The notes beneath the pieces were generated by a model, which worked only from the letters and a program-made list of their open reading frames with translations, ran no database searches and was not told the origin of the DNA. Shown in pieces: positions 2,383 to 6,005 of a stretch of 6,915 bases of DNA; position 1 is the first letter of the stretch, and each line of letters starts with the position of its first letter. Both the position numbers and the translations under genes were made by a program. The stretch lies in IMG/VR virus record IMGVR_UViG_2713896896_000002, positions 1 to 6,915 of that record, one strand, 5' to 3'. This DNA comes from a virus. Taxonomy: Duplodnaviria > Heunggongvirae > Uroviricota > Caudoviricetes.

Positions 2383-3129
2383 ATGAAAAATATTGCGACA
2401 GGCGGCGTTCTGGAACGTATCCGCAGACTGACCCCGCCACATGTAACCGCCCCATTCAGAACGGTAGCGGAGTGGCGCGAGTGGCAACTTGCTGAAGGCC
2501 AGAAGCGTAGCGAGGAGATCAACCGCCTGAATCGCCAGTTGCGGGTGGAAAAAATTCTGAATCGCTCAGGCATCCAGCCGTTGCACCGTAAATGCTCGTT
2601 TGCGAATTACCATGTACAGAACGACGGCCAGCGATACGCGTTAAGTCAGGCGAAATCCATCGCTGATGAACTGATGACCGGATGCACAAATTTCGCGTTC
2701 AGCGGAAAACCTGGTACCGGAAAAAACCATCTGGCGGCGGCTATCGGGAATCGCCTGCTGAAAGACGGCCAGACAGTGATAGTGGTTACTGTGGCTGATG
2801 TTATGAGTGCCCTGCACGCCAGCTATGACGACGGGCAGTCAGGCGAAAAATTTTTGCGGGAACTGTGCGAAGTGGATCTGCTGGTTCTTGATGAAATTGG
2901 CATTCAGCGTGAGACGAAAAACGAGCAGGTGGTGCTGCATCAGATTGTTGATCGCCGGACAGCATCGATGCGCAGTATGGGGATGCTGACAAACCTGAAC
3001 TATGAGGCCATGAAAACGTTGCTCGGCGAGAGGATTATGGATCGCATGACCATGAACGGCGGGCGCTGGGTGACTTTTAACTGGGAAAGCTGGCGCCCGA
3101 ATGTCGTCCAGCCAGGAATCACGAAGTGA
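2383..3129 (+). CDS. DnaC-family helicase loader (lambda P-position replication protein), AAA+ ATPase
   Basis: Walker [18 protein letters not shown] and Walker [10 protein letters not shown]. Strong end-to-end resemblance to E. coli DnaC as recalled (N-terminal MKN..., RSGIQPLH, C-terminal [22 protein letters not shown]...[10 protein letters not shown]). SD AGGGGG 9 nt upstream of the ATG. Confidence 0.92.
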
Positions 3130-3151: not shown

Positions 3152-3913
3152 ATGGAGACTGTTTTTGACGCACTGAAAGCGATGGGAAAGGCCACATCCA
3201 TAGAACTTGCTGCGCGACTTGATATCAGTCGTGAAGAGGTACTGAATGAGCTGTGGGAACTGAAAAAATCTGGTTTCGTTGATAAAACCGCGTACACCTG
3301 GCGTGTGGCTGGTAGCAATGCTCAGCAGGAACAAGCATCCCGGGCTGAATTTCATGAAGAAACTACCACGGCAACAGTAGCGAAAATCTCAGAGTGCGAT
3401 TTAACGGCGACGATTGAACAACGCGGACCACAAACGGCTGATGAGCTGGCTACGCTGTTCGGTATCACATCACGCAAAGTGGCTTCAACGTTGGCTCAGG
3501 CAATCAGCAAAGGTCGCCTGATTCGCGTAAATCAGAACGGTAAATTTCGTTACTGCATGCCGGACGATAATTTACCAGCAGAGCCGAAAGCCGCATTGGT
3601 AACGGAAACAGATGGTAAAGCCTTTCCTCAGCCAGCAGGTGTTGCGTTACCAGCACAGGAAACTGTAACACAGGAAGAAATTAAAACAGAAACTGTGGCG
3701 GACATTGTGCAGTCGCTGCCATCGTTCACCGAAACGCGGGCGGATGACCTGATTTTACCATCGCTGCATCTGGCAAACCGCGAACTGCGCCGGGCGAAAA
3801 ATCATGTCCAGAAGTGGGAGCGCGTCTGCGCCGCGCTGCGGGAGCTGAATAAACACCGGGATATTGTCCGACAGATTGTCGATTCCTCCAGTCGCGTTGT
3901 GTCGGAAAGGTGA
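3152..3913 (+). CDS. Hypothetical phage protein with two winged-helix-like repeats and a charged, probably coiled-coil C-terminus (253 aa; possibly DUF1627-like)
   Basis: Start placed at ATG 3152 because of SD GGGAGG at 3138-3143; the track ORF from 3101 would overlap dnaC-like. Two similar HTH-like segments ([30 protein letters not shown] and [32 protein letters not shown]). The family name is a tentative recollection. Confidence 0.7.
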
Positions 3914-3920
3914 GGCACTT

Positions 3921-4337
3921 ATGAGAAACGTTTTTACACCTGAATATCGGGAGCAACTGAAGGCGCGTATTGTGGAACTGGTGCGCAGAGATGGGAGGAA
4001 AACACGTAAGCAACTGGAGGATGAAACCGGAGCAACGAGACACCTGATAGAAGTTCTGGCGAAAGAGCTGGTAGTTAGTGGCACGCTATATGGTTCAGGC
4101 CATGGAATATTTCCTTCAGAACAGGCTCGTAAGGACTGGATAAAAGCCTGCAAAAAAATGTCGAGAGCGGCAGTGAAAAAGAAGAGCGACCCTGACCTGA
4201 TTTATTCATTGCCAGATGGTGAAATACGCCGTTACAACAGGAGACAGAACATAATTTGCCGAGAGTGCCGTCAGAGCGAAACTATGCAGCGCGTGCTGGC
4301 TTTCTGGAAGGGAAGTTTGCAGGAGGTGGTACTGTGA
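3921..4337 (+). CDS. Hypothetical protein (138 aa), basic, with N-terminal HTH-like segment
   Basis: Start at ATG 3921 with SD AAGGTGAGG (3907-3915) 5 nt upstream; the track start 3864 lacks an SD and overlaps the upstream gene. Tightly linked to the preceding ORF (7-nt gap), suggesting co-translation in one operon. Confidence 0.65.
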   Translation: MRNVFTPEYREQLKARIVELVRRDGRKTRKQLEDETGATRHLIEVLAKELVVSGTLYGSGHGIFPSEQARKDWIKACKKMSRAAVKKKSDPDLIYSLPDGEIRRYNRRQNIICRECRQSETMQRVLAFWKGSLQEVVL

Positions 4338-4464
4338 GCCAAATTAACAATCAGGACTGCGTGAAGTGAAAGAGAAAACATAATTCAAATCTGAATAATT
4401 AATCTCAGCACTGTAAATAAAATTTAATCCTTAACAGGAGGGATTCCTGCACCCTCAAAACATC

Positions 4465-4498
4465 AGGAGGCCGCCCGAAAGGGCGGTAATGAAAAATG
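4465..4498 (+). promoter_or_regulatory. Structured translation-initiation leader: SD AGGAGG (4465-4470), hairpin CCGCCC-GAAA-GGGCGG (4471-4486), start ATG 4496
   Basis: Perfect 6-bp GC stem with GAAA tetraloop sits exactly between a consensus SD and the start codon. Linear spacing is 25 nt, but about 9 nt if the hairpin is formed. A second weaker hairpin GAGGG-N9-CCCTC lies at 4438-4456. Confidence 0.5.
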
Positions 4499-4903
4499 AC
4501 TGAATTAACAAAAGAGCAATTAATCGAAGAAGCTAAATTAAAAATAGCGATTGCGAAATGCCACCCCAATTCAGGGGTGGCACGAGTAGAGGGTGAGTTA
4601 TTCAAAATTGCTCTGGCATCGCTGGAAGCAGAGCCGATAGCGTGGGAATACGGCGAAAACATAATCCTGTTTAATCCTGACACAGTTGAAGCATACGCAA
4701 AACGTGCAGAGATAACACCTAAACCTCTATTCACCGCTACACCTGTGTCACTGACACCAGAAGGATTGATTAAAGCAGTGCGTTTCTATGAACAGGTTAA
4801 GCGTGAAAATCCGCCAGTCGAAACCGGAGCATGGAAAGACGCGGTTGACTGGGTGCTCAAAGAGGCCTGTCGTGCAGCCATGCTTAAGGGAGATAAATCA
4901 TGA
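4496..4903 (+). CDS. Hypothetical protein (135 aa)
   Basis: Clean ORF. Its stop overlaps the next start in an ATGA arrangement (4900-4903). Preceded by a 158-bp AT-rich intergenic region and the structured leader. No family recognised. Confidence 0.65.
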   Translation: MTELTKEQLIEEAKLKIAIAKCHPNSGVARVEGELFKIALASLEAEPIAWEYGENIILFNPDTVEAYAKRAEITPKPLFTATPVSLTPEGLIKAVRFYEQVKRENPPVETGAWKDAVDWVLKEACRAAMLKGDKS

Positions 4904-5247
4904 TTAATCGAACCAAACTGGAGCACATCCTTGAGTATGCCTGGCAGCAGAGGCATTTGGGTCAGCACTGTAAAATTCCACCAGGAGATATGGTTGAAAT
5001 CGTGGAGATTGCCATGCGTAAGACTGGCAACTCTCCGGTAACTTCGGGCGGTTGGATAAGCTGTAGTGAGCGAATGCCAGGTGATGGTCAGCACGTAATT
5101 ATTTTATGTGATGGCGCATTCGTTCTTCATGCGCAATATCGAGACGGTGAGTTTTTCGATATTGTCCGCAATGGTAATGAATTTTTTGAAACACAGAGCC
5201 GCAATGTAACCGACTGGATGCCGCTACCAGAACCACGAAGGAGGTGA
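4900..5247 (+). CDS. DUF551-like phage protein (115 aa)
   Basis: C-terminal pattern GGWISCSERMPGDGQHVIILC...DGEFFDIV...VTDWMPLPEP matches my recollection of the DUF551 signature (W..P....V.....g....DWMPLPEP). Start overlaps the upstream stop, suggesting translational coupling. Confidence 0.65.
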   Translation: MINRTKLEHILEYAWQQRHLGQHCKIPPGDMVEIVEIAMRKTGNSPVTSGGWISCSERMPGDGQHVIILCDGAFVLHAQYRDGEFFDIVRNGNEFFETQSRNVTDWMPLPEPRRR

Positions 5248-5251
5248 ATCA

Positions 5252-5323
5252 ATGAGCTGGCCTGAGGCATTCACAACAGTAGGTATTGTACTGGCGGTGT
5301 ATTCGATTTGCCGCTGGGGGTAA
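5252..5323 (+). CDS. Small ORF, 23 aa, predicted single-pass hydrophobic peptide (MSWPEAFTTVGIVLAVYSICRWG)
   Basis: Not in the ORF track. Near-perfect SD AAGGAGGTGA (5238-5247) with 7-nt spacing to ATG 5252; stop TAA 5321-5323. It sits directly after the DUF551 gene in the same orientation. Confidence 0.5.
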   Translation: MSWPEAFTTVGIVLAVYSICRWG

Positions 5324-5329
5324 GGTATT

Positions 5330-5373
5330 AAAAAACGCCCCGCACACATAAGTTGGGCGCCTGAGATGCGGGG
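5330..5373 (-). terminator. Putative intrinsic terminator oriented for leftward (minus-strand) transcription
   Basis: 7-bp GC-rich stem CCCCGCA (5338-5344) / TGCGGGG (5367-5373). On the minus strand the stem is followed by CG then TTTTTT (complement of A-run 5330-5335). The loop is long (22 nt) and may fold further. There is no T-run after it on the plus strand. Confidence 0.4.
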
Positions 5374-5484
5374 ATAGGGAGTTGGTTAAATAGTTATACA
5401 ACAATACTTGATTTTGCATTGAAGCAAGGAGGAGATTGCCACATATTGAATCATGCACGTGTACGTCAAATGTGGGAGGTCATC

Positions 5485-5610: not shown

Positions 5611-5659
5611 TGCTGCGGGTGCTTGAGGCTATCTGTCTCAGGCATGAACACCAAAAGGC

Positions 5660-5750
5660 AGATAGAGAAAAGCCCCAGTTAACATTACGCGTCTTGCAGG
5701 ACGCTTAACATTAATCTGAGGCTCAATCCATGCTGAACACATGTAGGTTA
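5660..5750 (-). ncRNA. Expected position of a Sok-like antisense RNA overlapping the hok leader / mok-like start (boundaries not resolved)
   Basis: Inferred from the hok-family architecture. Candidate minus-strand promoter: -35 TTGCCT (complement of 5768-5773), -10 TAACCT (complement of 5745-5750). I could not identify a clean terminator, so the extent is approximate. Confidence 0.3.
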
Positions 5751-5786
5751 GCCTCTTACGTGCCGAAAGGCAAGGAGAAGCAGGCT

Positions 5787-5942
5787 ATGAAGCAGCAAAA
5801 GGCGATGTTAGTCGCCCTGATCGTCATCTGTTTAACCGTCATTGTTACGGCACTGGTAACGAGGAAAGACCTCTGCGAGGTACGAATCCGAACCGGTCAG
5901 ACGGAGGTCGCTGTCTTCACAGCTTACGAACCTGAGGAGTAA
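5787..5942 (+). CDS. hokD: Hok/Gef-family type I toxin (51 aa), closest in my recollection to HokD (RelF)
   Basis: MKQQKAMLVALIVICLTVIVTALVTRKDLCEVRIRTGQTEVAVFTAYEPEE carries the Hok signature (TM helix then RKDLCEVRIRTGQTEVAVFTAYE). SD AAGGAGAAG at 5772-5780. An in-frame upstream ATG at 5730 (track ORF 5730-5942) may play a mok-like coupling role. Confidence 0.85.
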   Translation: MKQQKAMLVALIVICLTVIVTALVTRKDLCEVRIRTGQTEVAVFTAYEPEE

Positions 5943-5950
5943 GAGACCAG

Positions 5951-6005
5951 GCGAGGGAGAAATCCCTCGCCACCTCTGATGAGTCAGGCATCCTCAACGC
6001 ACCCG
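5951..6005 (+). other. hok mRNA 3' structures: hairpin GCGAGGGA-GAAA-TCCCTCGC (5951-5970) and fbi-like element CCTCAACGCACCC (5993-6005) complementary to the mRNA 5' end (5617-5628)
   Basis: The 3' element is the reverse complement of GGGTGCTTGAGG at the predicted 5' end, with one bulged base. This is the hallmark 5'-3' closure of full-length hok mRNAs. The hairpin is a perfect 8-bp stem with GAAA loop. Confidence 0.6.

Follow-up and report, generated by a model that had tools for sequence, protein, structure and literature searches.

A putative hairpin-bridged translation initiation region before unrelated early genes of Escherichia lambdoid prophages

Split initiation regions in phage T4 and a comparable prophage leader

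To our knowledge, ribosome binding sites bridged by a hairpin are textbook curiosities from two genes of phage T4. Gene finders and calculators of ribosome binding site (RBS) strength take a distance of 25 nt between a Shine–Dalgarno sequence (SD) and its AUG as non-functional. The class of mechanism is already known. As read from the T4 genome, the gene 38 leader is TAAGGAG-AGGGGC-TTCG-GCCCTT-CTAAAT-ATG, with a hairpin of -14.1 kcal/mol, and the gene 25 leader consists of AAGAGG, an 18-nt hairpin and 8 nt. Mutations that destabilise the stem reduce initiation at both genes (PMC3014915; PMC7297116).

The locus described here lies in a stretch of 6,915 nucleotides (the window, whose numbering is used throughout), which is the early-right region of a Rac-type lambdoid prophage. 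Its genes come in the following order, which is matched in the complete phage vB_EcoS-666R9.

First, a repressor-like gene, on the minus strand
Second, YdaS-like and YdaT-like genes
Third, a replication initiator gene, then a gene for a DnaC/IstB-like ATPase
Fourth, DUF1627, then DUF977
Fifth, a gap of 158 nt that holds the leader, then a 135-aa Ea22-like ORF
Sixth, DUF551, then a hok/sok module

The elements of the leader, and the ORF behind it, are these.

4411 to 4435, plus strand: AU-rich motif CTGTAAATAAAATTTAATCCTTAAC, the 5' portion of the full leader, near-invariant among copies of the module
4436 to 4442, plus strand: SD1 (AGGAGGG), the first SD-like sequence
4438 to 4456, plus strand: hairpin 1, made of GAGGG (4438-4442), the loop ATTCCTGCA and CCCTC (4452-4456), with SD1 predicted to be sequestered by the anti-SD-like arm
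4465 to 4470, plus strand: SD2 (AGGAGG), the presumed functional SD
4471 to 4486, plus strand: hairpin 2, made of CCGCCC (4471-4476), GAAA (4477-4480) and GGGCGG (4481-4486), the putative bridging stem-loop
4487 to 4495, plus strand: spacer TAATGAAAA, A-rich and SD-free, between the stem and the start codon
4496 to 4903, plus strand: ORF of 135 aa, ead/Ea22-like (phrog_660/5117), its ATG (4496-4498) standing behind SD2 and hairpin 2, which together we call the cassette

The first-pass annotation had placed an AGGAGG 25 nt upstream of the ATG of the 135-aa ORF, and the positions of the two (4465-4470 and 4496) bear this out. It had also described a perfect CCGCCC-GAAA-GGGCGG hairpin as filling the gap between them; the hairpin is indeed perfect, but the gap is not literally filled, the window sequence dividing the 25 nt into 16 nt of hairpin and 9 nt of spacer. 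An in-frame TGA (4490-4492) closes the frame upstream, so that the ATG at 4496 is the first possible start, and RefSeq homologues of the ORF are annotated with the equivalent start. Another ATG, at 4489, opens an ORF of merely four codons, which in the window is out of frame; since a variant has this ATG in frame, it is not a conserved feature.

Such an arrangement, if loosely defined (a 4-mer SD core, a 6-bp stem and a start codon, each of any sequence), turned up at least once in 19% of shuffled windows; under a strict definition (GGAGG, a GC-rich 6-bp stem, and an ATG opening an ORF of at least 60 codons) it was found in none of 2000 shuffles. The exact element is kept in thousands of prophages, and the arrangement is therefore not a matter of chance. 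The 135-aa ORF also stands apart from its neighbours: the other gene starts of the window have an SD-like duplex of -5.6 to -10.2 kcal/mol at 4-8 nt (DUF1627, at 3101, is the exception), whereas the sole strong SD of this ORF lies 23-25 nt from its ATG. As to the exception, the longest DUF1627 ORF shares its first 29 nt (3101-3129) with the end of the DnaC-like gene and has no SD-like sequence within 10 nt; its true start may lie further downstream, or it may be translationally coupled.

In T4 gene 38, as in the prophages, the unit follows a stop codon, and a strong SD (AAGGAG in T4) abuts a GC-rich stem with a stable tetraloop, with a short, A/U-rich, SD-free spacer before the AUG. The SD–AUG distance is 22 nt in T4 and 22-25 nt in the cassette, and the hairpin energies are -14.1 kcal/mol and -12.4 to -16.9 kcal/mol, respectively. 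The sequences, however, are unrelated, with a UUCG loop in T4 and GAAA in the cassette, and the residual spacer is 5 nt in T4 as against 6-9 nt. Moreover, the T4 region, which has been demonstrated by experiment, belongs to just one gene, expressed late by a virulent phage, whereas the putative region described here is repeated in the early operons of temperate phages, where it precedes several unrelated genes. At the T4 gene 26-25 junction there is likewise an SD (GAGG) far from the AUG, at 27 nt, with an 18-nt hairpin in between; but this stem is AU-rich and weaker (-7.7 kcal/mol), its effective spacing is 11 nt, and the structure, which is kept among close relatives and lost in distant ones, is bound to one gene junction and not portable.

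Because its anatomy matches that of T4 gene 38, a constitutive hairpin-bridged initiation region is the best reading of the element, and on balance we incline to the view that it is a split (non-contiguous) region of the gene 38 type and not a switch. When the early operon of such a Rac-type lambdoid prophage is transcribed, the 30S subunit would pair with AGGAGG at 4465-4470 of the mRNA, and the 16-nt GC-rich GAAA hairpin, which starts at the next base, would stay folded and be looped out. The ATG, 25 nt off in sequence, would then be separated from the SD duplex by 9 single-stranded nucleotides and the width of the helix base. We infer that ribosomes start at the ATG by way of SD2 and the folded hairpin, and that the hairpin helps rather than hinders translation. 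The SD and hairpin would together form a portable unit, put by recombination 6-9 nt before the start codons of several unrelated small early genes that lack an SD of their own. Searches of the literature for the sequence of the element, and for split SDs in lambdoid prophages, gave nothing specific; neither the element, nor how abundant it is in E. coli prophages, nor its use before unrelated genes appears to have been described.

Predicted folding of the leader and variation in its stems

The 39-nt context of hairpin 2 folds in RNAfold with -16.9 kcal/mol (z = -4.5), and none of 200 shuffles was equally good. For the bare stem-loop the energy is -12.4 kcal/mol with 6 bp, or -14.4 kcal/mol with 7 bp, the optional seventh pair in RNAfold being G4470·U4487, which overlaps the last base of SD2. 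Within the native context of 146 nt, each stem base has a pairing probability of about 1, and the GGAG core of SD2 and the A of the ATG are predicted to be 61-90% and 96% unpaired, respectively. SD2 gives the strongest duplex with the anti-SD (-10.3 kcal/mol) within 40 nt 5' of the ATG, and throughout the spacer (4487-4495) the corresponding energies are at or above 0 kcal/mol. The duplex of SD1 with the anti-SD has -10.8 kcal/mol. In the window version, SD1 is predicted to be mostly paired in hairpin 1 (unpaired probability 0.03-0.36), which has -5.8 kcal/mol and is present in both the MFE and the centroid structures.

The first-pass annotation had drawn two functional suggestions from the hairpin. 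One, that folding moves a remote SD close enough to the AUG for initiation, as is known for a few genes of phages, gains support: the anatomy is like that of T4 gene 38, at least five families of ORFs follow the stem behind SD-less spacers of 6-9 nt, and their neighbours have ordinary SDs (see below). The other, that it could be a translational switch, is not supported, because the stem is too stable (predicted to be folded nearly always, with a pairing probability of about 1 and -12 to -14 kcal/mol) and has neither a competitor, no conserved alternative partner having been found for either arm of hairpin 2, nor an upstream ORF in the window that reads through it. Hairpins that sequester an SD, RNA thermometers included, offer a further comparison, in that hairpin 1 pairs SD1 with CCCTC, and GGGCGGU is present in the 3' arm of hairpin 2. 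The cassette differs from them in that SD2 lies outside the stem and is largely unpaired, and in that hairpin 2 is predicted to be too stable for physiological melting.

Might the hairpin instead be inhibitory? The real SD would then be the cryptic GGGCGGU locked in the stem (or no SD would be used), with weak translation of small, possibly toxic early genes; the exposed AGGAGG would be at most a standby site, and the 30S subunit would slide in when the stem breathes. With the stem open, the 3' arm and the following U (AGGGCGGU) would indeed form an interrupted duplex of -7.1 kcal/mol with the anti-SD at 8 nt from the ATG, a gap like that of other SDs in the window and a strength comparable to the SDs of some neighbouring genes. 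Several of the downstream products are short membrane proteins or unknown proteins, and a deletion variant of the leader, GGGGATCCCTCAGGCCCGAAAGGGCGGTAGTGAAATG, which is without SD2 and half of the 5' arm and has kept the 3' arm, lies about 45 nt 5' of the ATG of an intact DUF7167 ORF at three IMG/VR loci (L274, L290 and L307). Yet a stem of this stability would almost never expose its 3' arm, the consensus AGGAGG adjoining the stem is kept in essentially all copies, and copies with the spacer AACAGATA are without the U that completes the cryptic SD. Moreover, in T4 gene 38, where the layout is the same, the hairpin activates initiation (PMC3014915). An inhibitory role seems to us unlikely.

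Across copies, 94-96% of the cells of hairpin 2 are paired, and in the first unbiased scan all six pairs were kept, through C-to-U changes, in 32 of the 45 variant copies. Changes in this stem are mostly C-to-U in the 5' arm, which keep G·U pairs in RNA of the plus strand and would break pairs on the minus strand, and a change of G4470 to A turns the flanking G·U into A-U. Compensation, from G-C to A-U, is seen at 4473/4484: among contigs with A4473, T4484 is found in 7 of the 21 from IMG/VR and in 6 of the 13 from metagenomes, as against about 1-2% of copies with G at 4473, the contigs with the exchange being mostly of one lineage. Mismatches at the second pair, 4472/4485 (CGGCCC and CAGCCC; 18 contigs), are never compensated, targeted scans found no double changes at 4476/4481 or 4474/4483, and among distinct stem haplotypes there are 10 pair-preserving and 10 pair-breaking changes. 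Formal counts of covariation do not exceed those of shuffled controls. Comparative support for this stem is real but modest, and the fixed geometry in front of different genes is the stronger argument. The variation in hairpin 1, 99% paired in 52 unique copies, is uninformative; the single double change seen there (G-to-T with C-to-T) gives U·U, and is not compensatory.

Most copies of hairpin 2 have the loop GAAA and a minority GGCA, TAAA or AAAA, so a GNRA loop is usual and not obligatory. This bears on the suggestion that the hairpin is the site of an RNA-binding protein of phage or host (for antitermination of the boxB/N type, or as a translational operator), which would make it a true switch. 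The boxB of the lambda nut site is a short GC stem with a GNRA-type loop in a lambdoid early transcript; the GAAA tetraloop on its GC stem is superficially similar, and there are several copies per operon. We consider such a site very improbable indeed. The loop is a tetraloop, not the pentaloop of boxB, and is not strictly kept; the cassettes stand directly 5' of start codons, several to an operon, and far from the early promoters, after the replication genes. No boxA-like sequence adjoins the hairpin (matches in the window are fewer than expected by chance, and lie elsewhere), there is no N-like gene in the window, and Rfam holds no match: a search of the whole window against Rfam 15, with E up to 10, returned at the leader only a spurious snoRNA match (E = 4.7). 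A nut site of the lambda type was rejected on the absence of boxA near the hairpin, on the tetraloop and on the location behind the replication genes.

Some other candidates were also set aside. A Rho-independent terminator was rejected, as the stem is followed on the plus strand by UAAUGAAAAAUG, with no run of U, and a scan gave no site on that strand; on the minus strand a terminator-like site at 4478-4463 is weak and of chance frequency (2 found, 1.8 expected). No promoters were found in a scan of 3800-5400. A small ORF in the leader was rejected as well, in that the TAAATAAAATTTAA stretch closes all three frames and no canonical start comes after it.

Distribution of the cassette and the genes behind it

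The leader (about 120 nt; the query was the 123 nt of window positions 4378-4500) is found in 2,688 of 5,426 complete E. coli genomes, in up to nine places per genome and with 80-98% identity. Among species-representative genomes, real matches are confined to Escherichia and Shigella, so the evolutionary depth is small and a deep phylogeny is unavailable; conservation of the cassette could in part reflect recent spread. (Matches in Labrys and in a Bacillota MAG proved to be chance matches to hairpin 1.) The Rac and Qin prophages of E. coli K-12 do not have the cassette. Scans of IMG/VR and of metagenomes provided 339 copies of the SD–hairpin core. Hairpin 2 is kept in every one of them, with varying loops and linkers, and GGAG of SD2 is present in every copy that was collected with an anchor not constraining it.

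The annotated genes behind copies of the leader vary (DUF7167, DUF551, ead/Ea22-like, DUF4014 and hypothetical proteins). The core stands 6-9 nt 5' of the ATG in at least five unrelated gene families, with spacers that contain no SD, and across the other gene contexts the total SD2–ATG gap is 22-25 nt. The spacers, including one longer case with a GGAG of its own, are as follows.

DUF7167 (phrog_1997): TAGTGAA and TAGTTAA, 7 nt
Ea22-like protein: TAATGAAAA, 9 nt, and TAATGAAA, 8 nt
72-aa membrane protein (phrog_1832): TAAGAA, TAATGA and TAATAA, 6 nt
43-aa ORF: AACAGATA, 8 nt
MQEIKENI family (phrog_6418): TAACAAATA, 9 nt
Q-like protein (phrog_79): TGGAGATAATA, 11 nt, with its own GGAG within the spacer

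Neighbouring genes of the same operons have ordinary SDs, 5-8 nt from their starts. Operon L022, for example, has two genes that are each preceded by a cassette, and the three genes in between have ordinary SDs. When 2.2 Mb of related phage DNA was scanned for the succession of SD, stable hairpin, SD-less spacer and ATG, this cassette was the sole family found. IMG/VR yielded no relatives of DUF7167 with a different leader, all returned copies being 98-100% identical.

In many copies of the leader, homology ends at the ATG or within a few bases of it, and the flanking genes differ between prophages. This, together with the restriction to Escherichia and Shigella and the lack of significant covariation, is what would be found if the leader were a neutral or recombination-promoting linker at the mosaic junctions of lambdoid genomes, with a functionless hairpin carried along. 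We think this distinctly improbable, as the hairpin is never lost in the 339 copies even though loops and linkers vary, the common variants are those that keep the pairing, the genes downstream are without another SD, and the smallest form of the cassette, at 33 nt, is too short to be a useful target for recombination. A suggestion that we put forward tentatively, and would not press, is that the SD–hairpin unit is both a self-sufficient initiation cassette and a crossover point for the shuffling of genes among Escherichia lambdoid prophages. If so, any ORF recombined 6-9 nt past the stem would be expressed at once without an RBS of its own, and this would explain how one 22-nt element comes to head many unrelated accessory genes in half of E. 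coli genomes.

At 51 loci the smallest form just mentioned, TCAGGAGG-hairpin-spacer, is all that separates a stop codon from the ATG that follows, 33 nt in total. Therefore SD and hairpin can move together when the remainder of the leader, hairpin 1 included, is missing, and, since the core alone fills the junction, the presumed functional unit is SD2 with hairpin 2. The early operons are polycistronic and tightly packed, and the occurrence of the cassette in their few long gaps, and directly after a stop codon, would also suit an element mainly concerned with the stability or processing of intercistronic RNA, whose position between SD and ATG the ribosome merely tolerates; it might be a barrier to 3' exonucleases for the upstream message or, given the conserved AU-rich single-stranded stretch upstream in the full module, a protective 5' structure after cleavage by RNase E in the AU-rich leader. 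As the main function we regard this as improbable, since it leaves unexplained both the constant distance of 6-9 nt from stem to start and the SD that always abuts the 5' side. Such a role would in any case be compatible with a split initiation region, and so is not truly an alternative to it.

In other prophages the AU-rich motif of the full leader is followed directly by GGAGG, 7 nt and the ATG of a different gene (MS/LNTQK...), without a hairpin. Because the same motif elsewhere precedes an ordinary GGAGG and ATG, it belongs to the shared initiation region, and SD1, judged by its 7-nt spacing to the ATG, acts as a normal SD in this hairpin-less version of the module. The motif itself may be a place where S1 binds or RNase E cuts. 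The stop codon before the 33-nt junction belongs to the gene that is served by the AU-rich motif and first SD. The motif of window positions 4411-4442 (CTGTAAATAAAAT..AATCCTTAAC and GGAGG) is likewise seen 7 nt from the ATG of a 70-aa gene (MS/LNTQKIINTEKYNEW...), with no hairpin, an example being on the minus strand of L022 (4971-5006 of the reverse complement); operons with the 70-aa gene carry the SD–hairpin cassette once or twice further downstream.

Two loci, L224 (Shigella flexneri SFBU1023) and L226 (E. coli ECMA0423), have a leader that stops right after GGGCGG and is followed by unrelated DNA (GGAGCAGTCACACATCTG...). The break may be the endpoint of an insertion or deletion at the base of the stem.

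Implications, and other structures in and beyond the window

If the cassette works as in T4, a mechanism so far linked to two genes would be common in E. coli, with thousands of prophage copies and at least five gene families. The natural set of spacer and stem variants would then show what kinds of structure the 30S subunit can tolerate, and in what way, between an SD and its start codon, the prediction of start sites and of expression would be affected for prophage accessory genes (including those of Stx-converting phages), and a compact structured RBS part would be available for synthetic constructs. If it does not, a widespread strong SD has been made useless by distance, which would itself need explanation.

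Finally, we draw attention to several further structures. An AT-rich inverted repeat, CTGAAT-AATTAA-ATTCAG, lies about 95 nt 5' of the ATG in most full-length copies of the leader; its consensus was taken from L004 and L005 (around locus positions 1500-1520), and at window positions 4392-4409 it is degenerate (CTGAATAATTAATCTCAG). A protein might bind to this repeat, or its RNA might fold into a weak hairpin. Within the 135-aa ORF, 63 nt past its start, there is a perfect 9-bp hairpin, TGCCACCCC-AATTCA-GGGGTGGCA (4559-4582; codons CHPNSGVA), which is probably not conserved, because homologues encode GGA or GMA, not GVA, at the 3' arm. Further downstream, the hok/sok type I toxin–antitoxin module is complete (5617-5971): sok has an Rfam match at 5617-5792 (118.9 bits), the Hok/Gef ORF occupies 5730-5942, and directly 3' of it is a perfect 9-bp hairpin (5950-5971).

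An environmental repeat, GGAGTCCTCCCGAAAGGGAGGTA, which is unrelated to the prophage cassette, gave 79 matches (L312-L402), up to four per contig and about 270 nt apart, on metagenome contigs mostly of the Ga0315xxx, Ga0209xxx and Ga0307xxx series. It is interleaved with hairpins of the tetraloop type (CCTTGCTTTCGCAAGG and CCCCCGATTTCATCGGGGG) that are flanked by GGAGTCC/GGACTCC, and these arrays look like structured repeats.
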